A model generated the notes under the pieces. That model was given only the letters and a program-made list of their open reading frames with translations. It made no database searches and was not told the DNA's origin. This document shows positions 42,077-61,952 of a DNA stretch of 64,000 nucleotides, one piece after another. Each line of letters starts with the position of its first letter. Position 1 is the stretch's first letter. The position numbers and the translations under genes are program-made. Origin of the DNA: Alphaproteobacteria bacterium (lineage in GTDB: Bacteria > Pseudomonadota > Alphaproteobacteria > SHVZ01); contig JBGALV010000001.1 of the NCBI GenBank assembly GCA_044223515.1, positions 74,864 through 138,863 of the forward strand. The letters run 5' to 3'.

Positions 42077-42163
42077 CCCATGAACTTAACAACTTAATCA
42101 ACATTGACAATGATCGTTAGGGCAGGGACGCTGACTTGGTTCATTCTTCATGAGGAGGCTGTC

Positions 42164-45079: not shown

Positions 45080-46399
45080 TCAGTCGAGCCAGCGATCAAT
45101 TCTGTCGCGCAGGCGGTACCAGGCTCCGACGGCCGGCAGGAACCAGGGGCGGCCGCTGTAGAGCGGGCGTGTAGGGAATCCCAATCCGTCGAACGCGGAC
45201 ACGCGGTTGGTGCCGCCGGCGATCTTCAGCGCAACCTGATGGCCGAGCCAGGTCTGCATGATGACGCCGGAGCCGTTGCAAGCGACGGCGTAGTGCATGC
45301 CGTCGTTCATGCCGAGATGCGGCATGAAGTCGAAGGAAAACGCCACGTTGCCGGTCCAGGCATGGGTCAGCTTTGTGTCGCTCAACTGCGGGAAGACCGT
45401 CGTCATGAAGCGGTGCAGGATCGGCGCGCTGGTCTTGGCGCCGACCTGGGTGAACCGCGCGCGCCCGCCGAACAGTAGGCGCCGGCCGTCCGGCGAGAGG
45501 CGGAAATAGTAGAGGATGCGCTTGGTATCGGCGATCACGCGCTTCTTCGGAATCAGCTCGGCGATCACCTTCTCCGGCAGCTCCTCGGTCGCGATGATGA
45601 AGCTCGCGACGGGAATCAGCCGGCGCCGGATCCACGGCGTCACGTGGCCGGTGTAGCCATTGGTCGCGATCATGACTTCGCGTGCCTCGACATTGCCCCG
45701 CGGCGTCGCCAGCAGGAATCGCCCCTGCGCGCCGGAGATGGCCTCGACGCGCGTGTGGCCGATGAGATTGGCCCCGGCACGCGCCGCCGCCTCCGCGAGG
45801 CCGCGAACATAGAGCGCCGGATGCAGGCCACCGGCGCGGTTGACGACGATGCCGCCGCGATAGAAGTCGGTGCCGATCTCCTCGCGCTGGCGCGGTTCCG
45901 GGATGACCTCGACCGAGTGCCCGGACGTTTCGGCGACCCAGGCGGCGCGGCGCTCGAGCATGCCGAACTGCTGGCGGCTGTGGGCGCCGACGAAGCGGCC
46001 GAAGCGCTGGTAACGGGCATCGATGCCCTCGCGCTCGAGGATCTGCTCCATATGGCCATAAGCCTGGCCGGCTTCATCGATCATCCCTTTGGCGCGGTCG
46101 GCGCCGTAGGTTGCGGTCAGGTCGATGCCCTTGCCGACATTGATGCCGCCCGAGACCATGCCGGCGTTGCGCGATGACGCCCCGTAGCCGATCGCCTCGG
46201 CGTCGAAGACAGTGCAGGAGATGTTGCGCCGCGCGAGCTCGAGCGCGCAGGAGAGCCCGGCATAGCCGCCGCCGACGATCGCCACGTCGGTCTTCTCGGG
46301 AACCGCCGGCGTCTCCGGCGGCGAGGCCTGGCCCGGGTCGGCCGCCTCCCACCAGTAGGGCGTCTCCTTGAAGTCGGACGCGAAGATCCGGGCGCTCAT
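45080..46399 (-). CDS. FAD-dependent oxidoreductase (DadA / gamma-glutamylputrescine oxidase-like)
   Basis: It starts MSARIFASDF at 46399. It has the Rossmann motif VAIVGGGYAGLSCA. Confidence 0.85.
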   Translation of the reverse strand: MSARIFASDFKETPYWWEAADPGQASPPETPAVPEKTDVAIVGGGYAGLSCALELARRNISCTVFDAEAIGYGASSRNAGMVSGGINVGKGIDLTATYGADRAKGMIDEAGQAYGHMEQILEREGIDARYQRFGRFVGAHSRQQFGMLERRAAWVAETSGHSVEVIPEPRQREEIGTDFYRGGIVVNRAGGLHPALYVRGLAEAAARAGANLIGHTRVEAISGAQGRFLLATPRGNVEAREVMIATNGYTGHVTPWIRRRLIPVASFIIATEELPEKVIAELIPKKRVIADTKRILYYFRLSPDGRRLLFGGRARFTQVGAKTSAPILHRFMTTVFPQLSDTKLTHAWTGNVAFSFDFMPHLGMNDGMHYAVACNGSGVIMQTWLGHQVALKIAGGTNRVSAFDGLGFPTRPLYSGRPWFLPAVGAWYRLRDRIDRWLD

Positions 46400-46442
46400 C
46401 GGGGACGGAGTGTAGAGTAAGCGGCAAGGGGGTAGAAGCCGC

Positions 46443-46661
46443 ATGGCGGAACCGAGGAAGGGTGATGACCCGGTACTTGCCGCGCAGGCGGCGAAGGCGC
46501 GCGAGGCGTTGAACCGTCGACTCCAGACCAATCTGGATCTCGGCCGGCTGATCCGCTTCCAGCCGAGCTATCGCGCTTCGACGGGCACCTGGAACCTTCT
46601 GATGGCGATCCTGGGCGGTGCGATCCTGGCCGCGATCGTCGTCATCAACGTCTTCTTCTAG
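46443..46661 (+). CDS. hypothetical small membrane protein (72 aa)
   Basis: Good GC3 codon bias and a C-terminal TM helix. It lies in the divergent region just upstream of the riboswitch. Confidence 0.35.
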   Translation: MAEPRKGDDPVLAAQAAKAREALNRRLQTNLDLGRLIRFQPSYRASTGTWNLLMAILGGAILAAIVVINVFF

Positions 46662-46679
46662 GCAGCGGCGTCGCGTTCG

Positions 46680-46960
46680 GCTAGCTTCCCCGCCGATGGT
46701 TCCCTTCGGGGATTCAATGGGAACGCGGTGAGGCTTCGGCCGACTCCGCGGCTGCCCCCGCAACTGTAAGCGGCGAGCCTTGCGCCCTCGTGCCACTGGG
46801 AAACCCGGGAAGGCGGCGCAAGGCTAGGACCCGCGAGCCAGGAGACCTGCCATCGCCGTGGTCATGCGCGAGAACATCGGGCGGGGTGCCCTGATGGAGA
46901 CCGGAGCCCTCTGAAGTTGGGCGCCAGCCTCGGTTCGCGGTGACGGATCACGTTCGCCGC
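46680..46960 (+). ncRNA. cobalamin (B12) riboswitch with expression platform, upstream of the TonB-dependent receptor
   Basis: It has the conserved core GGTGAG...CCGCGGCTGCCCCCGCAACTGTAAGCGG...GTGCCACTGGGAA...GGGAAGGCG, which includes the B12 box GCCACTG. Confidence 0.8.
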
Positions 46961-46973
46961 GAGGTCTCGTTCC

Positions 46974-48872
46974 GTGCATTCCCTCATCAAGCAGTCGGCC
47001 CTCGGGGCCGCGTTCGCTCTCGGCGTCGCCGTGCCGGCGTTCGCCGATCCTCTCGTCATCACCGTCACGCCGAACCGGCGCGAGGTGCCGATCGATCAGG
47101 TCGGCAGCACCGTCACGGTCGTGACGTCCGAGGACATCGAACTCAGGCAGCAGCGCACCGTGCCCGACGTGCTGCGCACGATCCCCGGCATCAGCGTGAT
47201 CCAGAACGGCGGCCCCGGCGGCTCGACCACGGTCTCGCTCCGCGGCACCAACACCAACCACGCGAAGGTCCTGATCGACGGCATCGACGTCGGCGATCCC
47301 TCGACCGCCAACGGTGCCTTCGACTTCGGCAACCTGCTGACGTCGGACGTCGAGCGGATCGAGGTCGTGCGGGGACCGCAATCCGGCCTCTACGGCTCGG
47401 ACGCGATCGGCGGTGTCATCAACATCGTGACGAAGAGAGGAAAGGGACCCGCACGGGCGACCGCGGCGATCGAGGGCGGGTCCTTCGAGACCCTGAACAT
47501 GGCGGCCGGGTTGAGCGGCGCCACCGGCCGCTTCACCTATGCGTTCGACGCGGCTCATCTCCATGCGGGCGACACCCCGGTGACGCCGCTCTCGCTGCTG
47601 CCGGCGGGACGCGCGCGGATCGGCGACAAGGCCGACAACCTGACGCTCTCGACCCGGCTCGGTGCGAAGCTCAGCGACGATTTCGATCTCGGCTTCGTCG
47701 CGCGCTACGTCGATGCGTCGCTCCGCTTCACCGGCGACGACTTCTCCACCTTCCCGGCGACGCCCGCGGCCGCGCAGAGCCGGTCGCTGAACACGATGTC
47801 GCTGACGCGGCTGGAAGCCACGCATCGCAGCTTCGAAGGCTTCGAGCAGCGTTTAGGAATCTCCTATACGGAGCACGACCGCGAGATCCGCGGCATCGAT
47901 GCCTTCACGCCGGACACGGCGTACACGGGCGATCGGACCAAGGTCGACTGGCTGGGAACGTACCAGCTCGTGCCTGGGCACAGCCTGATCGGTGGTCTGG
48001 AAGCCGCGACCGACAAGCTCGACGATCGCTCGACCCGGGCCGAGAACGACACGAGCGCCGGCTTCGTCCAGCTGGACTCGGTCTTCGGCGGCGCGCTCTA
48101 CAACAGCGTCAGCCTGCGTCACGACGACAACGACCGCTTCGGTGGCGTCACCACCTGGCGGATCGCACCCAGCTATCGCATCGAGGCGACCGACACGCGG
48201 CTCAAGGCGAGCTACGGCACCGGCTTCAAGGCGCCGAGCCTGTCGCAGTTGTTCGTCAGCTACCCGGCCTTCAACTTCTTCGCCAACCCCAACCTGAAGC
48301 CCGAGCGCAGCACCGGCTACGACGCCGGCTTCGAGCAGGCGGTGATGAAGGGGCGGCTCCGCTTCGGGGCCACCTACTTCCACAACGACATCGACGACCT
48401 GATCACCACCAACCCCGGCTTCACCTCGCTGGAGAACCGGCCGTCGGCGACCACCTTCGGCATCGAGTCCTTCGTCTCGTTCGCGGTGACGCCACACCTG
48501 ACGCTCCGAGGCGACCACACCTATACCGAGGCACGCGACAACGAGACCGGGAACGCGTTGCTTCGCCGCCCGAAGCACAAGGCGACTCTCTCGGCGACCT
48601 GGCAGGTGACCGAGGACTCGACGCTGAGCCTGAGCACCCTCTATGTCGGCGCGCGCGTGGACGGCAACCGGGACTTCTCGGTCCAGCGGCTGACCGCGCC
48701 GTCCTACACCGTGATCAATCTCGCCGGCACGCACGAGCTGAACCAGCGGACGACGCTGTTCGGTCGCGTCGAGAACCTGACGGACAAGCAATACCAGGAC
48801 CCGACCGGCTTCGAGCGGCCGGGCCTCGGCGTGTTCGTCGGCGTGAAGGTGAGGTACGACGCCGCGCCCTGA
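46974..48872 (+). CDS. btuB: TonB-dependent outer-membrane receptor (BtuB-like)
   Basis: A GTG start, a signal peptide, a TonB box (DPLVITVT), a plug and a 22-strand barrel ending in the aromatic C-terminus. It is preceded by a B12 riboswitch. Confidence 0.85.
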   Translation: MHSLIKQSALGAAFALGVAVPAFADPLVITVTPNRREVPIDQVGSTVTVVTSEDIELRQQRTVPDVLRTIPGISVIQNGGPGGSTTVSLRGTNTNHAKVLIDGIDVGDPSTANGAFDFGNLLTSDVERIEVVRGPQSGLYGSDAIGGVINIVTKRGKGPARATAAIEGGSFETLNMAAGLSGATGRFTYAFDAAHLHAGDTPVTPLSLLPAGRARIGDKADNLTLSTRLGAKLSDDFDLGFVARYVDASLRFTGDDFSTFPATPAAAQSRSLNTMSLTRLEATHRSFEGFEQRLGISYTEHDREIRGIDAFTPDTAYTGDRTKVDWLGTYQLVPGHSLIGGLEAATDKLDDRSTRAENDTSAGFVQLDSVFGGALYNSVSLRHDDNDRFGGVTTWRIAPSYRIEATDTRLKASYGTGFKAPSLSQLFVSYPAFNFFANPNLKPERSTGYDAGFEQAVMKGRLRFGATYFHNDIDDLITTNPGFTSLENRPSATTFGIESFVSFAVTPHLTLRGDHTYTEARDNETGNALLRRPKHKATLSATWQVTEDSTLSLSTLYVGARVDGNRDFSVQRLTAPSYTVINLAGTHELNQRTTLFGRVENLTDKQYQDPTGFERPGLGVFVGVKVRYDAAP

Positions 48873-48891
48873 GGGCGCGTCGCCCTAACGT

Positions 48892-49515
48892 CTACTCGCG
48901 CGAGGTGTGCTGGACCGACCCGATCAGCGAGAGGAACTCGCGGCGGGTCGAGGGATCGTCGCGGAAGGCGCCGGTCATCTTGCTGGTGACCATCGAGGTG
49001 CCCGGCTTGTGGACGCCGCGGGTGGTCATGCAGTGGTGGATCGCCTCGATCACGACGGCGACACCGCGCGGCTTCAGGGCACTCTCGATCGCGCCGGCGA
49101 TCTGCGCGGTCAGCTTCTCCTGGATCTGCAGGCGCTTCGCATACGCGTCGACGACGCGGGCGAGCTTGGAGATGCCGACGACGCGGTTGCGCGGCAGGTA
49201 GGCCACGTGCACCTTGCCGATGATCGGTGCCAAGTGGTGCTCGCAATGGCTCTCGAGACGAATGTCGCGGAGCACGACCATCTCGTCGTAGCCCTCGGTC
49301 TCGGAGAAGGTGCGCGACAGGATCTCTTCCGGGTCGGCGCCATAGCCCGAGCCATAGGCTTCGTAGGCACGACAGACGCGGGCCGGGGTGTCGTGAAGGC
49401 CTTCGCGCGACGGGTCGTCGCCGGTCCAGCGCAGGAGGACGCGGATCGCTTCCTCGGCTTCGGCCCGAGAGGGCTTGAGGCTCTTCTTGGGCGCAGTCTT
49501 CTTGGGTGCAGGCAT
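48892..49515 (-). CDS. folE: GTP cyclohydrolase I (FolE, type IA)
   Basis: It has the CEHH zinc-site motif and the C-terminal HHCMTTRGV motif. The ATG at 49515 has GGGAGGA 9 nt upstream. Confidence 0.85.
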
Positions 49516-49843
49516 CCGACACATTCCTCCCGGGCCGATCCGTTGAGACGGGACCGGCCTGTTTTGTAGCGATCCTGATCGAGAAGGCCGGGACCCGCAT
49601 TCCGGTGCGGTCCGCAGCCTGTAGGTCGCGGCTAAGCCCGAGCCTAGCCGATCGGATACCTACGAGGCGATGGCGAAGGTTGCAACCCGAAAACCCGGCC
49701 CTGCGTGGGTTGAAAGGTAAAAATCCCGTACATTCAATACGGTTAACGTGGTTGTGAGAAGCCGCCGCCGGCCAGGAATGCCCGGTGCGATCACTTCGGA
49801 ACCGGAACGTCGTTACTTTGGCCGAGCCCGGACACTTGATCCC

Positions 49844-50974
49844 TTACTTCTTCGAGACGGCAAAGGGATCGGCGAAGCGTGGATCCTTGATGAAATCCTC
49901 ATCGGTGAGCGTGCGGAGAAAGGCGATCAGGTCGGTGCGCTCGTCCGAGGTGACCTTGAAGCCCGCGACGAACAGGTCCTTGTTCGGGTGCTGCGAGCCC
50001 GCGCCGGCATAGGGGCCGGAGGCGATCGTCCGGCCGCCGGCGGCGTAGTGGTCGATGACCTCCTCCAGCGTCGCGATGCTGCCGTCGTGCATGTAGGGGG
50101 CGGTGAGGGCCACGTTGCGGAGCGTCGGCGCCCGGAACAGGCCGACATGCTCGGGCCGGCCGGTGACCTCGGCGACTCCGGCGTTGAACGGCGGATAGTT
50201 GCCCGTGCCGCCGATATTGTAGAGGCCGGTGTTGTGGAAGGCGATCTCGAGGAACTGCGTCCGCTCGTGGACCACGTTGTCGTTGAGGTTGAGGCTGCCA
50301 TGGCAGTGGTGGCACTCGAACCGCTCGGAGAAGAAGAGCGCTTCGCCGCGCTTTGCCGAGTCCGAGATCGCGTTCTGCTCGCGGCCGAAGCGATAGCGGT
50401 CGTATGGAGAGTTCGCCGAGATCAGCGTGCGCTCGAAGGTGGCGATCGCCATCGCGATCTTCGGAATCGTGACGTCGCCGCTTGCGTCCTCGGGGAAGGC
50501 GGCCCGCGTCAGCTCGCGGTAGGGCGGATCGGCATTGAGCAGGCCGAGCACGGCCTGCTCGCGGCCAGTGAGCCCCATCTCGACCGGCTGCTCGTTGAAC
50601 ATCGGCACCAACGCCTGGTTCTCCAGCATCTTCAGCAGCGGGTTTGCCCAGGTCAGCACCGGGTTGTAGGCGACGTTGGCCAGCGACATCGCGCTCCGCG
50701 GATGAACCTCGCCGGTGACACCGACCGAGCGTGCCTTGCCGTCGGTGAAGGCGAGGTCCTGTCGATGGCAAGAGGCGCAGGAAAAGGTGCCATCGAGCGA
50801 GAGCCGCTTCTCGTAGAAGAGATGGCGGCCGAGCTCGACCTTGGCCGTCGACATCGCGTTGCCCTCGGGCACCGCCGGCTTCGGCAGCCAGTCGGGAATG
50901 CGCCAGACATACTCCTCGGCACGGGTGCCGCCGATGCCCAGCAGCAGTATCGCGATGACGACGAGCCGGATCAT
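49844..50974 (-). CDS. mbnH: di-haem cytochrome c peroxidase family protein (MbnH/MauG-like)
   Basis: It starts MIRLVVIAILLLG at 50974. It has two haem motifs, CASCH and CHHCH. There is an ATGA overlap with the upstream partner gene. Confidence 0.8.
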   Translation of the reverse strand: MIRLVVIAILLLGIGGTRAEEYVWRIPDWLPKPAVPEGNAMSTAKVELGRHLFYEKRLSLDGTFSCASCHRQDLAFTDGKARSVGVTGEVHPRSAMSLANVAYNPVLTWANPLLKMLENQALVPMFNEQPVEMGLTGREQAVLGLLNADPPYRELTRAAFPEDASGDVTIPKIAMAIATFERTLISANSPYDRYRFGREQNAISDSAKRGEALFFSERFECHHCHGSLNLNDNVVHERTQFLEIAFHNTGLYNIGGTGNYPPFNAGVAEVTGRPEHVGLFRAPTLRNVALTAPYMHDGSIATLEEVIDHYAAGGRTIASGPYAGAGSQHPNKDLFVAGFKVTSDERTDLIAFLRTLTDEDFIKDPRFADPFAVSKK

Positions 50975-51840
50975 CGGTCGAGGCGGAAGAGGCTCTGCGT
51001 GCCGGACGGCAGTCCGAAGGCCGCCATCACCCCGGTGCAGTCCTTGTCGTCGGGTGCGGAGAGGCAGCCGAGCGCGGTGTCCGGCTGGTTGACCGTAACG
51101 TCGGTCTGCGCCAGCAGCGCGGCGATGTCGGCGACGATCACGTCCTTGCCCGGATCGAAGGCGGCGAAGGTCACGGTGGGACGGTTCGGGTTGTCGCATT
51201 TGGCCGGGCGCTGCGTCGCCGCGCCGACCGCACGGCCGTGGCCGGCATGTCCGCCCATCGCCATGCCGCCGGCCGGCTGACAGGCGGTCGATCCGAGATG
51301 CACGACGAAGCCGGGTCCCTTGGCGACGGCCATGTCGAGGCGGAGGAACTTGTAGCCGCCGAGCCAGCTCCAGAAGAGGCCGCTCAGGTTCAGCGGCGAG
51401 TAGGCCAGCAGCGCGTCCTCGTGGTTGAGGCCGAACGGCACGCCGAGCGTGAAGCGGAGGCCGACGTAGTCTCCGGCCGGCACGGTTCCGCCCACCGCCA
51501 GGTTGGTCTCGGTCGTGCCGTTGAGGCAGGGGCCCGACTTGTCCTCGAAGTCGAGCAGGGCCACGTCGCGGTGCTGCCACTTCCGGTCCTGGGTGAGATC
51601 GACCGGAACCGCCTTGCCGGCCCGGTCGACCAGCTGGACCTCGGAGACGTAGAAGCGGAAATCCTGGGGCGTAATCCGCGCCTTGGCGGTGCCGATGCCG
51701 TCGTAGCTCCTGCCGCAGGCGAAGGGCTCGTTTCCGACCATCGCCTTGAAGCGCAGCGTCACCGGCCTGGTCTGCGCCGCCGCCGCCGAAACCATCGTGG
51801 CCAGGACCAGCCCGGCCAGCACTGTCACCTTGCCCTGCAT
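50971..51840 (-). CDS. mbnP: MbnP-family periplasmic protein (metallo-mystery pair partner of MbnH)
   Basis: A signal peptide and a Cys- and Trp-containing periplasmic protein of 289 aa. It lies immediately upstream of a MauG-like di-haem enzyme and is translationally coupled to it, which is the hallmark arrangement of MbnP/MbnH. Confidence 0.6.
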   Translation of the reverse strand: MQGKVTVLAGLVLATMVSAAAAQTRPVTLRFKAMVGNEPFACGRSYDGIGTAKARITPQDFRFYVSEVQLVDRAGKAVPVDLTQDRKWQHRDVALLDFEDKSGPCLNGTTETNLAVGGTVPAGDYVGLRFTLGVPFGLNHEDALLAYSPLNLSGLFWSWLGGYKFLRLDMAVAKGPGFVVHLGSTACQPAGGMAMGGHAGHGRAVGAATQRPAKCDNPNRPTVTFAAFDPGKDVIVADIAALLAQTDVTVNQPDTALGCLSAPDDKDCTGVMAAFGLPSGTQSLFRLDR

Positions 51841-51973
51841 GACCCCTCCTGCGAGCGGGAAGATAACGTCGCCGGGGCTCCGGATCGACGGTCTTTCGGC
51901 TGCAGCGCGAACGGCTTGATCGGGCTCCCCTATTCGGAAATCCTACGGCCTTCCTTTTCATCCAGGATCCTCC

Positions 51974-52726
51974 ATGAACCAGATCGATCTGAAAGGCCGC
52001 GTCGCGGCGATCACCGGCGGCGCTCGCGGCATCGGCTATGCCATTGCCGAGCGCTTCCTGGCCTCCGGTGCCTCGGTGGCGCTTTGGGACGTCGATCCGA
52101 AGGCGATGGAAGAGGCGAAGGCCCAGCTGTCGAAGAAGGGCAAGGTCGACACCCAGAAGGTCGACGTGGTCGACCTCGCCTCGATCGAGGCGGCGGTGAA
52201 GGGCACCGAGGCCGCCCTGGGGCCGCTCGCGATCCTGGTCAACAACGCCGGCATCACCGGCGGCAACGGCAAGACCTGGGAGCTCGACCCCAAGGTCTGG
52301 AAGCAGGTCGTCGACGTGAACCTGATCGGTCCCTTTCTCTGCGCCCGCGGCGTCGTGCCGGGCATGCTGGCCCGCAAGTACGGCCGCATCGTCAACATCG
52401 CCTCGGTCGCCGGCAAGGAGGGCAATCCGAACGCCTCACACTATTCGGCCTCCAAGGCCGGCCTGATCGCGCTGACCAAGTCGCTCGGCAAGGAGCTGGC
52501 GCAGAACGGCGTGCTGGTGAACTGCGTGACGCCGGCCGCCGCCAAGACCGACATCTTCAAGCAGATGAAGCAGGAGCACATCGACTACATGCTCTCGCGC
52601 ATCCCGATGGGCCGCTTTGTCGAGGTCGACGAGATCGCGGCGATGGTCGCCTGGCTGGCCTCCGAGGACTGCTCGTTCACCACCGGCGCGGTCTTCGACA
52701 TCACCGGCGGCCGTTCGACCTACTGA
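51974..52726 (+). CDS. SDR-family oxidoreductase
   Basis: The TGGARGIG cofactor motif and the YSASK catalytic motif. Length 250 aa. Confidence 0.85.
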   Translation: MNQIDLKGRVAAITGGARGIGYAIAERFLASGASVALWDVDPKAMEEAKAQLSKKGKVDTQKVDVVDLASIEAAVKGTEAALGPLAILVNNAGITGGNGKTWELDPKVWKQVVDVNLIGPFLCARGVVPGMLARKYGRIVNIASVAGKEGNPNASHYSASKAGLIALTKSLGKELAQNGVLVNCVTPAAAKTDIFKQMKQEHIDYMLSRIPMGRFVEVDEIAAMVAWLASEDCSFTTGAVFDITGGRSTY

Positions 52727-53790
52727 TGACTCAACGGTACCGCGCGGACGATCTGGTTCGCTTCGCCGAAAGCCTGCTGGTCAAAGCCGGCGTCGCGGCC
52801 GATCACGCGCGGATCACCGCCGAGGTCCTGATCGAGGGCGATCTCATGGGCCACACGACCCATGGGCTCGCGCTCATGAACCAGAACCTCGGCGAGCTCG
52901 AGGCCGGCCGCTACGCCAAGGCGGGCGAGCCCGGCGTCATCTCCGACCGGCCGGCGGCCGTGGTCTGGGAAGGGGCGCCGGACGGCAAGCGTCTGCTGGG
53001 TCCGGTGATCGTGCGGAAAGGCTTCGCGCTTGCGGCCGAACGGGCAAAGACCTACGGCACCGGCACGGTGGTGGTACGGCGCTCGGGCCACATCGCCTGC
53101 CTCGCCGCGTACTTCCCCGAGGTGACGGCGCAAGGCCTCGTCGGGCTGCTCTACTCCAGCGACCCGACCGTCGCCGCCGTAGCGCCACATGGCGGCACTG
53201 CCGGCCGCTTCACGCCGAACCCGATGTCCGCCGGCTGGCCGACCGCTTCCGGCCCGGTGATCATGGACGTCAGCACGTCGATCACCACCAACGGCTTGAT
53301 CGCGCGCCGCAACGCCGAAGGCGCGAAGATGCCCGGCGCCTGGCTCAAGTCGCCGGAGGGCGAGGCGACCGACGATCCGGGCGTGATGTTCCGGAAGCCG
53401 GCGGGTTCGTTGCTGCCGCTCGGCGGCATGGATGCCGGCCACAAGGGCTACGCGCTGGCGCTGATGGTCGAGGCGCTGACCTCCGGCCTCGGCGGTTATG
53501 GTCGGGCCGATGGGGCCACCGGCTGGGGCGCCTCGCTCTTCATCCAGGTGATCGATCCAGCGGCCTTCGGCGGCGGCGATGCCTTCGCCCGCGAGACCGG
53601 CTGGCTCGCCGACTCCTGCCGGACGGCGCCGGTGAAGGCGGGCGACGCGGCGGTCAAGGTCCCTGGCGACGGCGCGCTCGCGCGCAAGGCCGAGCAGCAG
53701 GCGAAGGGCGTCGCCCTTCATCCATCGATCCTGCCTGGCTTGAAGACATGGTGCGAGAAGCTCGGCGTCGAGGCACCGAAGCCAGTTTAA
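52726..53790 (+). CDS. Ldh_2-family (malate/L-lactate/ureidoglycolate dehydrogenase type 2) oxidoreductase
   Basis: It starts MTQRYRADD at 52726, with a TGATG overlap with the SDR stop. It has the Ldh_2 conserved HGL and GHKGYALA motifs. Confidence 0.75.
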   Translation: MTQRYRADDLVRFAESLLVKAGVAADHARITAEVLIEGDLMGHTTHGLALMNQNLGELEAGRYAKAGEPGVISDRPAAVVWEGAPDGKRLLGPVIVRKGFALAAERAKTYGTGTVVVRRSGHIACLAAYFPEVTAQGLVGLLYSSDPTVAAVAPHGGTAGRFTPNPMSAGWPTASGPVIMDVSTSITTNGLIARRNAEGAKMPGAWLKSPEGEATDDPGVMFRKPAGSLLPLGGMDAGHKGYALALMVEALTSGLGGYGRADGATGWGASLFIQVIDPAAFGGGDAFARETGWLADSCRTAPVKAGDAAVKVPGDGALARKAEQQAKGVALHPSILPGLKTWCEKLGVEAPKPV

Positions 53791-53797
53791 GAGCGGC

Positions 53798-54568
53798 CTA
53801 GCGCTTGGCGCCGCGGACCTGGATCCAGGGATATCCCGCTTCGTCGACGCCGACCCGTGACTCGACGCCGTAGACGCGGCTGAGCAGTTCCTCGTCCAGC
53901 ACAGAGCGCGCGGTGCCGTCGACCCAGGTCATGCCCGGGCACAGCATGACCAGCCGGTCGGCGAAGCGCGCGGCCAGGTTGAGGTCGTGCAGCACGACCA
54001 CGGTGATCATCTTCCGTTCGCGGCAGAGGCGTTGGACGTCCTCCATCAGCAGGTGCTGGTGGCGAAGGTCGAGGGCGCTGACCGGCTCGTCGAGCAGCAT
54101 CACGCGCGGATCGCGCAAGAGTGCCTGGGCGAAGAACACGAGCTGCTTCTGGCCGCCGCTGAGCTCGTCGAGCGAGCGGTGCGAGACTTCGGCGAGGCCG
54201 AACTGGTCGAGCGCGATCGCCGCGCGGCGGAGCTCGTCCTCCGGCACATGCAGGGTGAGACGCTCGAGCGAGCCCAGCAGCACCGTCTCCATCGCCGAGA
54301 GGCCCATGCGGCTGCGGTTGTCCTGCGGCATATAGCCGATCGCCGATTGCCAGGTGCGGAGCGTGCGCGAGGCGAGGCTGGCGCCGTCGAGCAGGATGTC
54401 TCCTGATTTCGGCCGATGCTCGCCGAAGAGCGCGCGCAGCAGCGTCGACTTTCCGGCGCCGTTGGGACCGACCAAAGCGGTCAGCTCGCCCTCGCGGAAG
54501 GCGAGATCGAGGCCGCCGACCACCTCGAGGTCGCCATGCGCCAGCGTGAGGTCGCGGACCTGCAGCAT
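53798..54568 (-). CDS. iron-siderophore/cobalamin-type ABC transporter ATP-binding protein (FecE/BtuD-like)
   Basis: It starts MLQVRDLTLAHGD at 54568. It has Walker A (GPNGAGKST) and the signature LSGGQKQ. There is an ATGA overlap with the permease. Confidence 0.85.
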   Translation of the reverse strand: MLQVRDLTLAHGDLEVVGGLDLAFREGELTALVGPNGAGKSTLLRALFGEHRPKSGDILLDGASLASRTLRTWQSAIGYMPQDNRSRMGLSAMETVLLGSLERLTLHVPEDELRRAAIALDQFGLAEVSHRSLDELSGGQKQLVFFAQALLRDPRVMLLDEPVSALDLRHQHLLMEDVQRLCRERKMITVVVLHDLNLAARFADRLVMLCPGMTWVDGTARSVLDEELLSRVYGVESRVGVDEAGYPWIQVRGAKR

Positions 54569-55614
54569 CAGATGCCGATCCGCCGGCGCGACAGGATCAG
54601 GTGCAGGAAGAACGGCACGCCGACCACGGCCGTCACGATGCCGACCGGCACCAGCACGCCCGGCATCAGGATCTTGGAGATGACCGAGGCCGCGGAGAGG
54701 AGGAGGGCGCCGACCAGGCCGGACATCGGCAGCAGGAAGCGCTGGTCCTCGCCGACGAAGAAGCGCGAGAGATGAGGGGCGACGAGCCCGATGAAGCCGA
54801 TGGTGCCGACGAAGCTGATCGCGGTCGCGGTCATGAAAGAGATCAGCGCGATCGTCACGAACCGCAACCACATCACGTTGACGCCGAGCGCGCGGGCGCG
54901 CTGCTCGCCGAGGCGAAGGGCCGTCATCTTCCAGGATTCCCGCATCAGCAGCGGAATCCCGATCAGGCAGGCGACGGCGGTGATCTGGACGCTGGTCCAG
55001 GTCGCCTTGGCGAGGCTGCCGAACAGCCAGAAGACGATCTGCTGGCCGACCTCGGGCGTGGCGCGGAACTGCAGAAGCGACTGCAGCGAATGGAACATGA
55101 AGAGGAGCGCGATCCCGGCCAGCACCATGGTGTCGGTGCCCATGCCGCGGATGTTGCCGACGCCGTAGATCGTCGCCGAGGCGAGGCAGGCGAAGACGAA
55201 GGCGCAGACCGGCACGATGAAGCTGGGATTGAGCCCCCAGCCGCCGTTCTGGATGCAGAGCGACGCGCCGAAGCCGGCGGCGGCGGCGAGGCCGAGCGTG
55301 TAGGGACTCGCGAGCGGGTTGTCGAGCAGCGTCTGCATGGTGGCGCCGCTGGTGCCGAGCGCCACGCCGACGGTCAACGCCATCAGCGCCATCGGCAGGC
55401 GCAGGTCCCAGACGATCGCGCGGAGCATGGTGTCGGCCTCGGCCGGGCCGAGCAGCGTCGCGATCACGTCCTCGACGCGGATCAGCGCCGGGCCGGTCGC
55501 GATGTCGAGCACCAGCAGGCCGCCCAGGACGACGGCCAGGCTGAAGAACGCGACCATGCGCCGGCGCTCGACGCGCCGGTGCATGGCGATCGCATGTTGG
55601 ACGGCGTGGTTCAA
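54568..55614 (-). CDS. FecCD-family ABC transporter permease (BtuC-like)
   Basis: A 348-aa polytopic protein of the FecCD/BtuC family. There is an ATGA overlap with the SBP gene. Confidence 0.85.
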   Translation of the reverse strand: MNHAVQHAIAMHRRVERRRMVAFFSLAVVLGGLLVLDIATGPALIRVEDVIATLLGPAEADTMLRAIVWDLRLPMALMALTVGVALGTSGATMQTLLDNPLASPYTLGLAAAAGFGASLCIQNGGWGLNPSFIVPVCAFVFACLASATIYGVGNIRGMGTDTMVLAGIALLFMFHSLQSLLQFRATPEVGQQIVFWLFGSLAKATWTSVQITAVACLIGIPLLMRESWKMTALRLGEQRARALGVNVMWLRFVTIALISFMTATAISFVGTIGFIGLVAPHLSRFFVGEDQRFLLPMSGLVGALLLSAASVISKILMPGVLVPVGIVTAVVGVPFFLHLILSRRRIGI

Positions 55615-56732
55615 ACTTTGCCGCCGGACAGGTTGATCATGAAGGTGCCCTTGGGCTCGATCGGCAGGTACTTCCTGTAGAAGTTCTGATAGGTGGCCTC
55701 GGGATCGAGGTCGGCGAACAGCTCCGGATAGAGGACCTTGGCGACATATTGCAGCGAAGCGTGGTCCGGGATCGTGCGCGAGGCGCCGTGATAGACGGCG
55801 TGCACGCGGTTGGTCTTGACCGCCGGCAGGTCGGCCCAGCCCGGGCGCTTGGTGAAGCCGGCGAGGCGAGAGCGGGCCTCGTCAGGGGTTACGCCTTCGC
55901 CCATGAGCTGCGCGGTCGCGTGCTTCCGCCACTCGGATCCGGCGATCAGGATCACCTCGGGCTTGGCGGCGAGAACCTGCTCGGGCGAGACCGGCGCCCA
56001 GGTCTTCACCACCTCGCGGGTGATGTTGGCGCCGCCGGCGGTCAGCGCGATTGCGCCCCACATGTGATCGCCGTAGCTGACGCCCTGCTCGGCCGGGCCC
56101 TTGTTGCCGAGCTCGATGTAGATGCGCGGCTGCGGCTTGCCGGACCTGGCGACGCGTTCGCGGATCAGGGTGACCGTGTCCTGGTATTCCTTGTTGATCG
56201 CAGCGGCGCGGTCCTCGGTTCCGAGCACCTGCCCCAGTACCTTCGTGCTGGCGAGGTGCTTCTCCAGCGTCTGGGCGTGGTAGTCGACGACGATCACGGG
56301 AATGCCGAGCGAGACGAGGCGGTTGAAGTCGGCGCCGATGCCCTTCACCTGCCAGTCGCCGAGGATCACGAGGTCGGGCTTGAGCGCGATCACCTTCTCG
56401 ACCGAGAAGGTGTTGACCTCGACCTCGCCGACGTCGACCAGCTGGTCGAGCGACGGACGCTTCGCCAGATGCACTTCCCAGTTCTGCGGGCGCCAGTCCT
56501 TCCAGGCGGCTTTGGAGATGCCGACGACGCGATCCATCGCTTGGCTCCCGCCGACGGCGAGGAAATCCTCGAAGTAGAAGCCGAGCATGATGCGCTTGAC
56601 CGGCATCTCGACGGTGACCTCGCGGCCAAGTACGTCGGTGACCTTGAGCGGTGCGGCGGCGGCGGGGAGGGCGAGTGCGGCGAAGGCCGCGAATGCGGCC
56701 AGGAAGGTTCGGCGATGAAGGGAACGAAACAT
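55611..56732 (-). CDS. periplasmic substrate-binding protein, FecB/BtuF class (Tat signal)
   Basis: It starts MFRSLHRRTFLAAFAAFAALA at 56732 with a twin-Arg signal and a GAGGA RBS. It has the Peripla_BP_2-like fold. It is preceded by a B12 riboswitch. Confidence 0.85.
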   Translation of the reverse strand: MFRSLHRRTFLAAFAAFAALALPAAAAPLKVTDVLGREVTVEMPVKRIMLGFYFEDFLAVGGSQAMDRVVGISKAAWKDWRPQNWEVHLAKRPSLDQLVDVGEVEVNTFSVEKVIALKPDLVILGDWQVKGIGADFNRLVSLGIPVIVVDYHAQTLEKHLASTKVLGQVLGTEDRAAAINKEYQDTVTLIRERVARSGKPQPRIYIELGNKGPAEQGVSYGDHMWGAIALTAGGANITREVVKTWAPVSPEQVLAAKPEVILIAGSEWRKHATAQLMGEGVTPDEARSRLAGFTKRPGWADLPAVKTNRVHAVYHGASRTIPDHASLQYVAKVLYPELFADLDPEATYQNFYRKYLPIEPKGTFMINLSGGKV

Positions 56733-56769
56733 GGAATCCTCGCGGTGCGTTGTGGTCGTCACCGCGAAC

Positions 56770-57030
56770 GAGCTTGCCGGGTCGTCGTGACAACCGGCTC
56801 GCTACCGTCAGGGCACCCCGCCCGTCGGCTTCGCTAAGTGACCACGTCGGACGGCAGGTTTCCTGGCTCGCGGCTCTCTGCCTTGCCGTCGCCTTCCCGG
56901 GCCGAGGAAGCCCAGTGGCACGATGACGGAAGACTCGCCGCTCACAGTTGCGGGGGCAGCCGCGGATCGAAGCGATGGCTCCTACCGCGTTCCCTTTTGA
57001 TCCCCTTTCAGGGAACCGTCCGGACCGGAT
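56770..57030 (-). ncRNA. cobalamin (B12) riboswitch (second copy, minus strand) upstream of the BtuF-like SBP gene
   Basis: The reverse complement contains ...GGGAACGCGGTAGG...CCGCGGCTGCCCCCGCAACTGTGAGCGG...GTGCCACTGGG...GGGAAGGCG. The platform shares long identical stretches with the riboswitch at 46.7 kb (GGGCGGGGTGCCCTGA, CGGTTCGCGGTGACG). Confidence 0.75.
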
Positions 57031-57054
57031 GCTACGCGCCCGCGCCGGGCCGGG

Positions 57055-57462
57055 TCAATTTGCCTTCTTGGCGGCCTTGAGTGCGATACGGATCCGTTCG
57101 ACCACCATCTGGGTCGAGGCCGGCTTGACGATGTATCCGGCAATCCCGAGACCCTTGAGCTTGTGCACGCTCTCGGGATCGTTGGAGGCGGTCAGCATCA
57201 CGACCGGAATCTGCGCGCTTCCGGTCGGCAGCTCCCTGAGCTTGGCCAGGAACTCGAAGCCGTCCATGTTCGGCATCTTGAGGTCGCAGAGGATGACGTC
57301 GACGAACTCGCGATCGGCGGAAATCAGGTCGATCGCCTCCTTGCCGTCGCGGGCTTGCAGGATCTCCTTGAAGCCGATGCCGTTCAGCATCCGCGCCATC
57401 ATCGAGCGGATGAAAAGCTGATCCTCGATCAGCAGGATCCTGATGCTGGCGAACTCGCTCAT
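57055..57462 (-). CDS. single-domain response regulator (CheY-like receiver)
   Basis: It starts MSEFASIRILLIEDQ at 57462. It has the phospho-acceptor Asp in VILCDLKMPNMDG and the conserved Lys in YIVKP. Confidence 0.8.
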   Translation of the reverse strand: MSEFASIRILLIEDQLFIRSMMARMLNGIGFKEILQARDGKEAIDLISADREFVDVILCDLKMPNMDGFEFLAKLRELPTGSAQIPVVMLTASNDPESVHKLKGLGIAGYIVKPASTQMVVERIRIALKAAKKAN

Positions 57463-57554
57463 CGGTCCGTGCCATAGCACATGACCGCGGCGCAGCGAGG
57501 CCGGAATGCGGGGCTGCGGAAGAAGAACGATCCCGTTGGTTAATGACCGAACGG

Positions 57555-58457
57555 TTATTCTTTGACGGCGCCGGTCAGGCTCGAGACGTAGTACTCGACG
57601 AAGAACGAGTAGAGGATCGCCACCGGCAGCGAGCCGAACAGCGCGCCGGCCATCAAGGCGCCCCAGTGATAGACGTCGCCTTCGACGAGCTGGGTCAGCA
57701 CGCCGACCGGAACCGTCTTCTCCTCGGACGAGGAGATGAAGGCGAGGGCGTAGATGAACTCGTTCCACGACAGCGTGAAGGCGAAGATGCCGGCCGAGAT
57801 GAGGCCGGGCACCGCCAGCGGCAGCGTGATCCGCCACAGGATCTGAATGCGCGTGGCGCCGTCGATCAGCGCGCACTCCTCGAGCTCGTAGGGGATGGAC
57901 TTGAAGTAGCCGATCAGGAGCCAGGTGCAGAACGGGATCAGGAAGGTCGGGTAGGTCAGGATCAGCGCCCAGCTCGTGTCGTAGATGCCGAGCCCGTAGA
58001 CCATGGTGGCGAGCGGGATGAACAGGATCGACGGCGGCACCAGGTACGCGAGGAAGATCAGCAGGCCGACGGTCTGTGCGCCCTTGAAGCGGAGCCGCGT
58101 GATCGCATAGGCCGCGAGCACGCTGGCGAAGATCGAGAGTGCGGTCGCCGCGACCGCGACGACCATGGTGTTGAAAAGCCACTCCGGATAGTTGGTCTGA
58201 AAGAGCAGCTTGTTGATGTTGGCGAAGGTCGGGTTCTTGATCAGGAAGGGATTGTGTTCGCGGAGGCTGTAGAGTTCCTCGTTCGGTTTGAAGGTCGTGA
58301 CCCCCATCCAGTAGAACGGGAACAGCAGCACCACGATGAACACGATGAGCGGCACGTAGACCGTCACCAGCCGCCGGGGCAGCGTGTTCAGGTAGTCCAT
58401 GCCGGTCGAGTCGGCGGTCTTCACCTCGCGGACGGCGGTGTCAGTCATCGCGTTCAC
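57555..58457 (-). CDS. carbohydrate ABC transporter permease (MalG-like)
   Basis: A 300-aa protein with the EAA motif (ECALIDGATR). Confidence 0.85.
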   Translation of the reverse strand: MNAMTDTAVREVKTADSTGMDYLNTLPRRLVTVYVPLIVFIVVLLFPFYWMGVTTFKPNEELYSLREHNPFLIKNPTFANINKLLFQTNYPEWLFNTMVVAVAATALSIFASVLAAYAITRLRFKGAQTVGLLIFLAYLVPPSILFIPLATMVYGLGIYDTSWALILTYPTFLIPFCTWLLIGYFKSIPYELEECALIDGATRIQILWRITLPLAVPGLISAGIFAFTLSWNEFIYALAFISSSEEKTVPVGVLTQLVEGDVYHWGALMAGALFGSLPVAILYSFFVEYYVSSLTGAVKE

Positions 58458-59391
58458 CCTGCTGCCACTTGCGCCGCTGAAGGCCGAAGTAGCTGGACAG
58501 CGTTGCCGCCACCAGGAACGGGATCATGGCGGTCGCGATCGCCGCACCTTCGCCGAGCTGGCCGCCGGGGATGGCGCGCTGGAAGGCCAAGGTTGCCATC
58601 AGGTGCGTGGAGTTCACCGGGCCGCCGCGGGTGATCGCGTAGATCAGCTGGAAGTCGGTGAAGGTGAACAGCACCGAGAAGGTCAGCACGATCGAGAGGA
58701 TCGGCATCAGCATCGGCACGGTGACGTGCCGGAAGCGCTGCCAGGGCGTCGCGCCGTCGAGCGCCGCCGCCTCGTAGAGCGAGGGCGAGATCGTCTGCAG
58801 GCCGGCCAGGAGGCAGATCGCGACGAAGGGGATGCCGCGCCAGACGTTGGCGGCGATCAGCGAGGCGCGGGCGTTGGCGGGCCTGCCGAGGAAGTCGATG
58901 TACTGATCTATCAGCCCGAGGTTCTGGAGGATGTAGCTGAGGATCGAGAACTGGGCGTCGTAGATCCACCAGAAGGCGATCGCCGAGAGCACCGTCGGGA
59001 TGATGTAGGGAAGCAGGATGATCGCGCGGATGATCGCCTTGAACGGCATGTGGTTGTTCAGGAGCAGCGCGAGATAGAGGCCGAGGCCGAACTTCAGGAC
59101 GGTCGCGACCGCGGTGTAGAGGACCGTGTTGAAGACGACGAGCCAGAAGACGCTGTCGTCGAACAGCGAGATGTAGTTCTCGAGCCCGATGAAGATGCCC
59201 GGCCGGCCGATCTTGGTGTCGGTGAATCCCAGCCAGACGCCGAGGCCGAGCGGATATGTGAGGAACGTCAGCAGCAGGATCGCCGCCGGCGCCATGCAGA
59301 TGATGGAGAGGACGTTCCGGTTGTCGAGGAGTTCGACAAGCGGCCTGCGGGCGATGCTGCCCGTCCGGTTGAGCGCGGCGGTTGCCATCAA
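58441..59391 (-). CDS. carbohydrate ABC transporter permease (MalF-like)
   Basis: A 316-aa protein with the EAA motif (EAAALDGATPWQ). Confidence 0.85.
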   Translation of the reverse strand: MMATAALNRTGSIARRPLVELLDNRNVLSIICMAPAAILLLTFLTYPLGLGVWLGFTDTKIGRPGIFIGLENYISLFDDSVFWLVVFNTVLYTAVATVLKFGLGLYLALLLNNHMPFKAIIRAIILLPYIIPTVLSAIAFWWIYDAQFSILSYILQNLGLIDQYIDFLGRPANARASLIAANVWRGIPFVAICLLAGLQTISPSLYEAAALDGATPWQRFRHVTVPMLMPILSIVLTFSVLFTFTDFQLIYAITRGGPVNSTHLMATLAFQRAIPGGQLGEGAAIATAMIPFLVAATLSSYFGLQRRKWQQGERDD

Positions 59392-59458
59392 GAATCCCTG
59401 GATCGAGACGGGAAGGGGCGCGAGGCCGAAGCCCCGCGCCCGTCAGTTGCCCGGTCGA

Positions 59459-60775
59459 TCAGATCTTGTAGTAGCGCTCGACCCGCTTGTGCGCTTCGGC
59501 TGCGGCTTCCGCCGGTGTCTTGGCGCCGGAGGCGACCGAGGCGAACATCGTGACGATGATGTAGTCGGCGAGCGCGCCGGCCGACGCGTAGCCGAGAGAG
59601 CCGGCATAGCCCAGCCACAGCGCGTTCTTGATCACCGAGTTGTACGGCGTGTGCTTGGGGTCGACGGTCCAGATCTTGTTGTTCTCGTAGAACTTGAGCG
59701 GATGGCCCCAGTAGCCGATCGAAGCCTCGAGCCAGGGCTCGTACTGCTCCTTCTCCATCATGAAGCGGATGTAGTCCTTCGCCGCGTTCGGGTACTTCGA
59801 GTACTTGAACACGTAGGCCGGGACCATGCTGCAGGATTCCGACGGCTTGCCGACCGGGCCGATCGGGAACGACGCGTGCTCGATGTCGGCGGCCATCTCC
59901 TTCAGCTTCGGATCCGTCGCGGTCTTGGCGGCGTAGTAGACCGAGATGCCGTTCGCGGTCAGCGCGATCTGGCCGTCGAGGAACGCCTTGTTGTTCGACG
60001 GGTCGAGCCAGCTGAGCGTGCCCGGGATGAAGGTCGCGTAGAGCTTCTTGACGTACTCGAGCGCGGCGATCGTCTCGGGGCTGTTGAGCGTCACCTGGTC
60101 CTTCTCGTTGACCATGCGGGCGCCATGGCCCCACAGCACCCAGTGGCACCAGCCGTTGGTGTCGCCGATGGCGTTGCCGAGGGCGAAGCCGATGGGCGTG
60201 TTCTTGGCCTTGAGATCCTCGGCCATCTTGAGGAAGCCGGGGAAGTCTTTGGGCACGGCATCGTAGCCGGCGGCCTTCAGCATCGACTTGCGATACACCA
60301 TCTTCGAGCCCGAGGCGCCGAGCGGGATCGAGATCCAGTTGTTGCCCTTCTTGCCGTACTTCTGCGCGAGGTCGTACCAGCCGCCGTACTTGGCGCCGAG
60401 ATAGTTGGCGACGTCGTTCAGCACGACGACCTTGTCGGGGTACTGGTGCACGTTGTCGTGCCACCCGTAGACGACGTCCGGACCCTTGCCGACGTTGGCG
60501 GCGACCGCGGACTTCGGAACCAGGTCTTCCCAGCCTTCAGAGTCGACCCGGACCTTCACGCCGGTCATCTTCTCGTACTTGGCGGTGTTCTCGAGGAACA
60601 GAGTCTCGTCGCCCTGGACGAACTTGGCCGGCCGCATGATGCGGAGGCTGGCGCCCTTCTCAGGCTGGATCTTCCATTCGGGAGCCGACTGGGCCAGCGC
60701 CGGACCGCCGAGGGCGGTTCCCGCGGCCAAGCCGACGCCGATCTTCATTACGTCTCGCCTGTTGAAGTCAGACAT
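59459..60775 (-). CDS. carbohydrate ABC transporter substrate-binding protein (Tat signal)
   Basis: The N-terminus RRDVMKIGVGLAAGTALG is a twin-Arg signal. It is a 438-aa SBP_bac_1-like protein. Confidence 0.85.
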   Translation of the reverse strand: MSDFNRRDVMKIGVGLAAGTALGGPALAQSAPEWKIQPEKGASLRIMRPAKFVQGDETLFLENTAKYEKMTGVKVRVDSEGWEDLVPKSAVAANVGKGPDVVYGWHDNVHQYPDKVVVLNDVANYLGAKYGGWYDLAQKYGKKGNNWISIPLGASGSKMVYRKSMLKAAGYDAVPKDFPGFLKMAEDLKAKNTPIGFALGNAIGDTNGWCHWVLWGHGARMVNEKDQVTLNSPETIAALEYVKKLYATFIPGTLSWLDPSNNKAFLDGQIALTANGISVYYAAKTATDPKLKEMAADIEHASFPIGPVGKPSESCSMVPAYVFKYSKYPNAAKDYIRFMMEKEQYEPWLEASIGYWGHPLKFYENNKIWTVDPKHTPYNSVIKNALWLGYAGSLGYASAGALADYIIVTMFASVASGAKTPAEAAAEAHKRVERYYKI

Positions 60776-60844
60776 CGTGTTTCCTCCTGTTTTTAAACGT
60801 CTATGCGGGCCCTCTGCGCTTCTTCTTTTTGGACGCGCTTGCTC

Positions 60845-61912
<1,068 letters not shown>

Positions 61913-61952
61913 GACGTTCCCTTGTCCCTGAAGCTTCTAGTTGTCGTACATC

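Follow-up and report, generated by a model that had tools for sequence, protein, structure and literature searches.

Two cobalamin riboswitch leaders, probably ancient paralogs, precede a BtuB-like receptor gene and an ABC importer operon at one alphaproteobacterial locus

In the cobalamin riboswitches of Escherichia coli btuB and of env8, kissing between the loops L5 and L13 stabilises P13 and promotes a hairpin at the ribosome binding site (RBS), and this L5-L13 contact is the documented way in which ligand binding is coupled to the expression platform of cobalamin riboswitches (PMC10327014). Regulation by a B12 element is also an accepted way to pick BtuFCD out of iron-type ATP-binding cassette (ABC) systems, and FecCD-type importers under such elements are conventionally taken to be corrinoid importers (PMC2667541). 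Binding proteins of the YiuA and 4mo9 type have been assigned to siderophore or heme binding (PMC5683015). Here we analysed a stretch of 64,000 nt from contig JBGALV010000001.1 of an uncultured alphaproteobacterium (hereafter the window), in which one cobalamin riboswitch on the plus strand, RS1, precedes a gene for a TonB-dependent receptor and a second one on the minus strand, RS2, precedes an operon encoding a substrate-binding protein (SBP), a permease and an ATPase. We consider it probable (roughly 0.8) that these are two independent functional leaders that place outer-membrane (BtuB-like) and inner-membrane (SBP-permease-ATPase) corrinoid uptake under one feedback signal, that they are ancient paralogs and that their control is translational.

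A scan of the whole window against Rfam with cmscan, at gathering thresholds (31.5 bits for RF00174), returned exactly two RF00174 matches, which lie on opposite strands and each score about four times the threshold. This is the covariance-model check, on both strands, that an earlier note on this DNA had proposed, and it bore out the note's claim of two cobalamin riboswitches on opposite strands. The aptamers and the genes that they precede are as follows:

46680-46868, plus strand: RS1 aptamer, RF00174 cobalamin riboswitch, 124.8 bits, E 6.7e-31, model positions 1-189 complete
46974-48872, plus strand: TonB-dependent receptor, BtuB-like, 632 aa, Plug and barrel domains, GTG start at 46974
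57035-56836, minus strand: RS2 aptamer, RF00174 cobalamin riboswitch, 128.8 bits, E 4.8e-32, model positions 1-189 complete
56732-55611, minus strand: SBP, Peripla_BP_2 domain, YiuA-like, ATG start at 56732
55614-54568, minus strand: permease, FecCD domain match
54568-53798, minus strand: ABC ATPase, ABC_tran domain match

The coordinates and domains upheld the placement of the plus-strand riboswitch before the receptor gene and of the minus-strand one before the SBP-permease-ATPase genes, which form a single operon (56732-53798) with overlapping stop and start codons. RS2 sits, as had been described, in a gap of about 320 bp behind a response-regulator gene; the distance from the SBP start to the stop of this receiver gene (57055) is 322 bp. 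As for the core strings that the note had attributed to both aptamers, CCGCGGCTGCCCCCGCAACTGT, GCCACTGGG (the B12 box, consensus GCCACUG) and GGGAAGGCG are present in RS1 and RS2, but GGTGAG occurs in the plus copy only and RS2 reads GGTAGGAG in its place. The conserved loop L5 (consensus UCCCG, PMC10327014) is present in both as GCTGCCCCCGC. Orthologous copies of RS1 and RS2 are kept in L001, L003 and L139 (L numbers designate the sequences collected for comparison). From their sequences, RS1 and RS2 are bona fide cobalamin riboswitches (RF00174, adenosylcobalamin type), for which ligand binding is predicted.

Riboswitch platforms usually diverge fast. The earlier note had pointed to long stretches shared by the two platforms, and one of them, the 16-mer GGGCGGGGTGCCCTGA, was indeed found exactly twice in the window, at 46879-46894 (plus) and 56823-56808 (minus), compared with 0.00 occurrences expected from shuffles. 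The other had to be redefined: what the copies share is the 13-nt GTTCGCGGTGACG and not CGGTTCGCGGTGACG, the minus copy having CTCGTTCG. The spacing from GGGCGGGGTGCCCTGA to GTTCGCGGTGACG is 42 nt in both leaders, and between the shared modules the two platforms are practically unalignable. For comparison, leaders were gathered from related loci, one metagenome pattern scan, a plasmid collection and contigs encoding SBP homologs. The metagenome pattern, GTTCGCGGTGACG-N5-20-CCGCGAGG, gave at least 120 matches, about three quarters of those listed being chance matches in GC-rich coding sequence; the census of downstream genes is a sample among the matches listed and is biased to leaders with exactly that sequestor. 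The possibility that this platform is confined to btuB leaders was rejected, btuF-type leaders having turned up via protein homologs.

More than 30 distinct leaders from distant Alphaproteobacteria displayed one common architecture. From 5′ to 3′ it comprises a TTGAC-N17-19 promoter whose -10 abuts P1, the aptamer, a post-P1 segment GUCAYGCGCGR, P13 (consensus CAUUGG[GCGGGGUGCA]CCAAUG), a variable hairpin and a sequestor of the Shine-Dalgarno (SD) sequence. The sequestor consensus is a hairpin of 12 bp, UUCGCGGUGACG / loop / CGUUGCCGCGAG, with a 3′ strand that enters the SD GAGG, 5-9 nt ahead of the start codon. The complete unit, from promoter to sequestor and with an anti-sequestor strand of 11-13 nt, was seen in RS2 and in the RS1 orthologs of L004 and L005. 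The shared stretches are equally identical in Methylocella leaders and many soil metagenome contigs, and nearly identical in Roseomonas- and Mesorhizobium-labelled leaders and several metagenome-assembled genomes (MAGs). In the window, the predicted elements are:

46861-46872, plus strand: RS1 anti-sequestor strand AS1, GUCAUGCGCGAG, pairs with 46934-46944
46875-46896, plus strand: RS1 P13 hairpin, with the L13 loop CGGGG at 46882-46886, complementary to L5 CCCCG
46897-46932, plus strand: RS1 variable spacer hairpin, sequence and length not conserved
46934-46963, plus strand: RS1 SD-sequestor hairpin, in which UUCGCGGUGACG (46934-46945) pairs with CGUUCGCCGCGAG (46951-46963); SD GAGG at 46961-46964
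57029-57058, minus strand: RS2 promoter TTGACC-N18-TAGCAT, the -35 overlapping the stop codon of the upstream receiver gene
56830-56842, minus strand: RS2 anti-sequestor strand GUCACUUAGCGAA, from pair conservation and folding
56805-56828, minus strand: RS2 P13/L13 hairpin, including the shared 16-mer at 56823-56808
56739-56768, minus strand: RS2 SD-sequestor hairpin, in which UUCGCGGUGACG (56768-56757) pairs with CGCACCGCGAG (56749-56739); SD GAGGA at 56741-56737

The P13 hairpin was predicted by RNAalifold, with compensatory exchanges between AU and GC at two pairs of its stem (10 sequences for one pair, 13 for the other). Its loop L13, CGGGG, is the exact complement of L5, CCCCG; neither loop varies among the collected leaders, so that loop-loop covariation is not visible there. 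Folding each of the two sequences singly gave the SD sequestor, and so did the consensus fold. Compensatory double changes in it were found in L160, from a Methylocella tundrae plasmid (G-C to A-U), and in L162, from a contig of a Roseomonas-labelled MAG (C-G to U-A), and L016 carries a wobble change. The anti-sequestor consists of 11 bp between the switching strand and the post-P1 segment. In 32 leaders 100% of its cells were pairable, against 30-51% in slid controls, and the six pairs that vary do so only through transitions that keep them paired. When the transcript was ended just after the switching strand, the minimum free energy (MFE) structure was the anti-sequestor in 4/4 leaders (RS1, RS2, a typical btuB and a btuF-type leader). 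In three of these four it closed a three-way junction that contains P13 and the spacer hairpin, the enclosed segment of RS1 folding otherwise. The MFE structure of the full-length RNA was the sequestor. A helix between the linker after P1 and the start-codon region, which was seen in single-sequence folds, was rejected because the start region is unconserved and the helix is not in the consensus fold.

In the resulting model, GGGCGGGGTGCCCTGA is the P13/L13 kissing-loop hairpin and GTTCGCGGTGACG is the switching strand, which is predicted to pair with either the anti-sequestor or the SD strand. Having two alternative partners would freeze the switching strand, and the need to match an invariant L5 would freeze L13, so that these stretches are the same in both copies and almost unaltered in genomes with only about 50% BtuB identity. 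We infer the switching logic from structure prediction, pair conservation and the precedent of E. coli btuB. Without corrinoid, the anti-sequestor would capture the switching strand UUCGCGGUGAC as soon as it is transcribed, so that the SD would be left free and the open reading frame (ORF) translated. With corrinoid bound, L13 would dock on L5 in the time gained by the spacer hairpin, and this docking would hold P13 and the adjoining linker so that the anti-sequestor could not form. The switching strand would then pair with the SD strand in the 12-bp hairpin and translation would be blocked. No terminator-like site was found in the RS1 or RS2 leader and, because an intrinsic terminator is absent, control would be translational, with Rho termination or mRNA decay as a possible later step.

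Two further observations concern the switching strand. A third exact copy of GTTCGCGGTGACG lies inside btuB at 48479-48491 (plus), encoding F-A-V-T, which brings the window to three copies compared with 0.01 expected. It was rejected as a regulatory partner, since relatives differ at synonymous positions (TTCGCCGTGAC, TTCGCGGCGAC), and it is probably due to chance. Two btuF-type leaders retain the switching strand wholly or for the most part, next to another 3′ partner: in L156 (5902-6003), UUUGCGGUGACG stands with …CCACAUGAGG, and in L161 (4775-4895), UUCGCGGUGACG stands with …CCACAACACAGG. The switching strand seems to be kept more for the anti-sequestor than for SD pairing.

The receptor matched Plug (E 1e-28) and TonB_dep_Rec_b-barrel (E 4e-43). 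RF00174 elements were found upstream of receptor homologs whose identity ranges from 97% to about 30%, and in several phyla, namely in Alphaproteobacteria, in Desulfuromusa and Geopsychrobacteraceae MAGs, and in MAGs labelled Gammaproteobacteria, Pseudomonadota and Actinomycetota. This distribution across phyla supports the reading of the protein as a BtuB-like corrinoid receptor. The importer had been called btuFCD-like, which stands as far as it is a type II operon with BtuC as the top match of its permease, but not by the strict equivalog cut-offs for BtuF, BtuC and BtuD, all of which were missed. The top NCBIfam matches of the permease are BtuC models (186 bits versus a cut-off of 461, and 182 versus 334), and the ATPase scored 113 bits against BtuD (cut-off 281), which is not its top match. 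The SBP (373 aa) found its best family in PRK14048, ferrichrome/ferrioxamine SBP (163 bits versus 374). Its closest solved relatives are 4mo9 (E 4e-74, full length) and YiuA 6b2x (E 1e-48), with 9hrj, 9hrp, 9if3 and 9ht5 also close in the PDB, and it matched E. coli BtuF structures at E ~2e-11 over 170 residues only. By these comparisons the SBP belongs to a YiuA-like family and is not a BtuF ortholog.

SBP homologs at 60-69% identity (L155, L156, L161 from a Mesorhizobium plasmid and L162) have RF00174 upstream in all cases. A neighbour-joining (NJ) protein tree united the riboswitch-linked SBPs with 100% bootstrap, RF00174 being present in 5/5 tested members of this clade. In the sister group, at 54-57% identity (S. 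meliloti, Pannonibacter, Curvibacter), RF00174 was found in 0/3 and a cupredoxin gene follows in 3/3. Because B12-element control marks corrinoid importers among iron-type ABC systems, the best reading of the operon is a corrinoid importer, its transport activity being predicted from riboswitch control only.

The RS1 and RS2 units are convergent, with 10 kb of unrelated genes between them:

49524-48892, minus strand: folE, gene call upheld
50974-49844, minus strand: mbnH, encoding MbnH, NCBIfam cut-off passed
51840-50971, minus strand: mbnP, encoding MbnP, NCBIfam cut-off passed
51974-52726, plus strand: SDR, gene call upheld
about 52732-53790, plus strand: Ldh_2, gene call upheld

These intervening genes (48892-53790) form their own transcription units, with folE (minus) and mbnP-mbnH (minus) diverging from SDR-Ldh_2 (plus), and therefore lie downstream of neither riboswitch. 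Domain scans agreed with the earlier description of folE, mbnH/mbnP, SDR and Ldh_2 as no obvious B12 genes, and the Pfam-scanned ORFs between 24 and 64 kb of the window included no cob, cbi or metH-type gene. A look-up of the window's FolE in a contig index gave no record.

A query with the receptor protein gave 34 loci from species-representative genomes, the nearest receptor relatives being encoded by uncultured Alphaproteobacteria MAGs (97, 90 and 88% identity). A tblastn synteny map showed the same 10-kb block in L001, L002, L003 and L008, with both riboswitches present wherever the contig extends far enough. L004 and L005 (73-74% BtuB identity) retain RS1-btuB-folE-SDR, and L004 also retains Ldh_2; mbnPH and the entire RS2-btuFCD module are absent from these two syntenic loci. 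In L004, the interval from Ldh_2 to the receiver gene showed no trace of RS2 or btuD and is filled by an unrelated ORF of about 128 aa (12980-13365); the site is a variable one. A clean insertion or deletion of RS2-btuFCD was rejected, the different small ORF in L004 pointing to replacement. The lack of RS2-btuFCD and mbnPH in L004 and L005 indicates that the bracketing layout arose recently, by juxtaposition in one lineage, and is no conserved functional block.

The earlier note had read the long identical stretches as a sign that a whole leader was duplicated. In its recent form, this would mean that the complete RS1 leader was copied before the ABC operon in the window's lineage, an event that would suit the shared 16-nt and 13-nt stretches at their common 42-nt spacing, as well as the missing RS2-btuFCD at the L004/L005 site, where the module must have been gained or lost. 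NJ trees with bootstraps on full leaders, together with Jukes-Cantor distances, point elsewhere. RS1 falls in a clade with L001-L006 (86% bootstrap), and RS2 groups with its orthologs and L155 in a clade of btuF-type leaders (99%, or 63% when L156 is added) from genomes with 66-69% SBP identity; RS1 and RS2 were sisters in only 0-8% of bootstraps. The RS1-RS2 distance, 0.42-0.45, exceeds that from RS1 to the btuB leaders of genomes with 47-52% BtuB identity (0.24-0.30), and RS2 ranks 32nd of the 33 nearest neighbours of RS1. RS2 moreover keeps the ancestral AUCAAAAGGGAAC, and the entire RS1 clade, L004 and L005 included, has UUSAAUGGGAAC. The trees thus group leaders by controlled gene and not by genome, which, with RS1 and RS2 not being sisters, argues that any duplication is ancient; we consider a recent one very improbable. 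The argument from identity is not supported either, since the stretches are constrained modules that are as conserved in unrelated genomes, and they are uninformative on when RS1 and RS2 split. By this phylogeny RS1 and RS2 are old paralogs, each co-inherited with its own operon, and their overall architecture is plausibly of one ancestry.

A different doubt concerns the substrate, since the ABC importer might import a metal chelate (for example a cobalt or copper complex or a siderophore-like compound) with uptake tuned by B12 status, and not be a corrinoid transporter. The best matches of its SBP (4mo9, YiuA and the ferrichrome/ferrioxamine model, with BtuF weak), the cupredoxin-linked sister group and the mbnP-mbnH genes near the importer in the window and in L156 would all be in keeping with this. 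The riboswitch-linked SBPs are nevertheless separate from the cupredoxin-linked group, BtuC is the best NCBIfam match of the permease, the operon is under the same type of leader as btuB, and the convention for FecCD-type importers under B12 elements favours corrinoids (PMC2667541). Import of a metal chelate is on this balance unlikely, and corrinoid import is retained. As regards copper, mbnP (copper-binding) and mbnH (di-heme enzyme), at 49844-51840 (minus), are present in the window's clade and absent at the L004/L005 site, and a second mbnP-mbnH pair lies in L156 (1735-3755), 2.2 kb upstream of the riboswitch-controlled SBP operon. The transporter family may have a copper link.

Several observations weigh against the reading of two functional leaders that control corrinoid uptake. 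Ligand binding and the direction of regulation are predictions. The top NCBIfam match of the receptor, TonB-B12 TIGR01779, reached 314.4 bits, under the cut-off of 599.7 (NF007926 likewise gave 261.5 bits with a cut-off of 836), and the SBP scored 59.6 bits against the BtuF equivalog NF002894, whose cut-off is 234. The sequestor detail is not universal, L156 and L161 keeping the switching strand with a different 3′ partner. The variation behind the anti-sequestor is one-sided, the search pattern having fixed the 3′ partner for most leaders, which hides true covariation. A second candidate ON-state helix exists between the 3′ strand of P13 and UUGG/UCGG just upstream of the switching strand; it was 82.5% paired, with AU/GC/GU covariation at one pair, is weaker than the anti-sequestor and may act with or instead of it. 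Finally, a scan for sigma-70-like sites over 46300-57400 found no recognisable -35 for RS1 in the window. This last point would fit a decay of one riboswitch into a relic with no regulatory role, which we regard as the least credible of the alternatives: both leaders score far above threshold, L5/L13, anti-sequestor and sequestor are intact in both, and both are kept in relatives with 88-97% BtuB identity, where stem substitutions preserve pairing. All in all, two functional leaders under one corrinoid signal remain the preferred interpretation.

The RS2 promoter is the sole sigma-70-like site within 46300-57400, and its layout recurs in the L155, L156, L160 and L007 sequences. RS1 has a -10-like TAGCTT at 46682-46687 and lacks a recognisable -35 because a 72-aa ORF ends at 46661 and occupies the -35 position. 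The RS1 orthologs of L004 and L005 carry TTGACG-N18-TAGGGT at the corresponding place. The 72-aa ORF (46443-46661, plus) has a hydrophobic C-terminus, stops 18 nt ahead of RS1 and matched no Pfam or NCBIfam family; L001-L006 all have it ahead of RS1, at 67-88% identity. Its distance from the riboswitch is about 315 nt greater in L004, which carries a TTGACG -35 of its own at that place.

Other arrangements of these genes were seen among the collected loci. The distant L009, L011, L012, L014 and L016 have btuB followed directly by btuC and btuD homologs, with one riboswitch. Two RF00174 matches also occur in L009 (9312-9467, minus; 9590-9805, plus) and L011 (3123-3280 and 9603-9804); the pair of the Geopsychrobacteraceae MAG is divergent, back to back and about 120 nt apart, with one member barely above threshold (33.9 bits). 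On the Methylocella tundrae plasmid NZ_LR536452.1 (L160, 1-7240), a btuB leader that belongs to this family stands, with its receptor gene, directly downstream of integrase and recombinase genes, and a VapBC pair lies about 2 kb past the receptor gene. Riboswitch-btuB units like this one may travel on mobile DNA.

Around the locus, the 375-aa response-regulator ORF upstream of RS2 (57055-58182, minus) has probably been called too long. Its match to Response_reg is confined to residues 249-364, and the 5′ part of the ORF overlaps, in another frame, a BPD_transp_1 permease gene (57555-58523). The receiver gene is preceded by a sugar-type ABC operon (about 57555-61936) with SBP_bac_8, two permeases and a MalK-like ATPase. 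Farther away, 40919-43249 holds two divergent genes of the citrate synthase family, the minus-strand one combining an N-terminal HTH_17 (excisionase-type) domain with a citrate synthase domain.

Biologically the arrangement is ordinary, B12-uptake genes being under cobalamin-riboswitch feedback. The main value of the analysis is annotation: the uncultured alphaproteobacterium would scavenge corrinoids and use one type of sensor for outer- and inner-membrane uptake, and a minus-strand riboswitch that a gene caller would overlook is flagged. What is new is modest, namely an explicit platform model for a large family of alphaproteobacterial leaders and a consistently riboswitch-controlled clade of non-BtuF SBPs. 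The former gives the alphaproteobacterial btu-leader platform a well-supported secondary structure (anti-sequestor, P13/L13, spacer hairpin and SD sequestor), and the latter offers a candidate alternative corrinoid-binding protein; neither would much surprise a specialist. A bolder proposal has two parts: that the riboswitch-linked 370-aa SBP clade represents unrecognised non-BtuF binders of corrinoids or their precursors, which arose in the YiuA-like family via a btu-type leader, and that the promoter-to-sequestor unit with its invariant UUCGCGGUGACG is a platform module conserved, unusually, across several alphaproteobacterial orders. We put this forward tentatively, as possible but somewhat doubtful.

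The closest described system for the leaders is the E. coli btuB riboswitch, which likewise precedes a TonB-dependent B12 receptor, has an RF00174-type aptamer and a five-bp L5/L13 complementarity, and continues with P13 and then a separate RBS-hiding hairpin, without a terminator. Unlike it, the window leaders have a platform sequence specific to an alphaproteobacterial group, their P13 is separated from the sequestor by a long spacer hairpin of variable sequence and length, and their proposed anti-sequestor is the linker directly 3′ of P1 and not part of P13. E. coli BtuFCD and the operon of the window share the architecture of type II importers, in which a FecCD-family permease and an ABC ATPase are combined with a cluster A SBP, and BtuFCD homologs in many bacteria are also under B12-riboswitch control; in contrast to E. 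coli BtuF (about 266 aa), the SBP of the window has 373 aa and falls far below the cut-off of the BtuF model. In length it belongs to the class of the cluster A-2 metal-chelate binders YiuA of Y. pestis (6b2x) and "FepB" of Veillonella parvula (4mo9), which are not known as riboswitch-controlled, whereas the SBP clade of the window is preceded by RF00174 in all members tested. B12-element regulons with several riboswitches per genome, each before a transport unit as here, are described in work cited in PMC2667541. Unlike in those regulons, the copies in the window face each other over 10 kb, a layout that is otherwise found only in its close relatives L001-L003 and L008 and not in L004 or L005.

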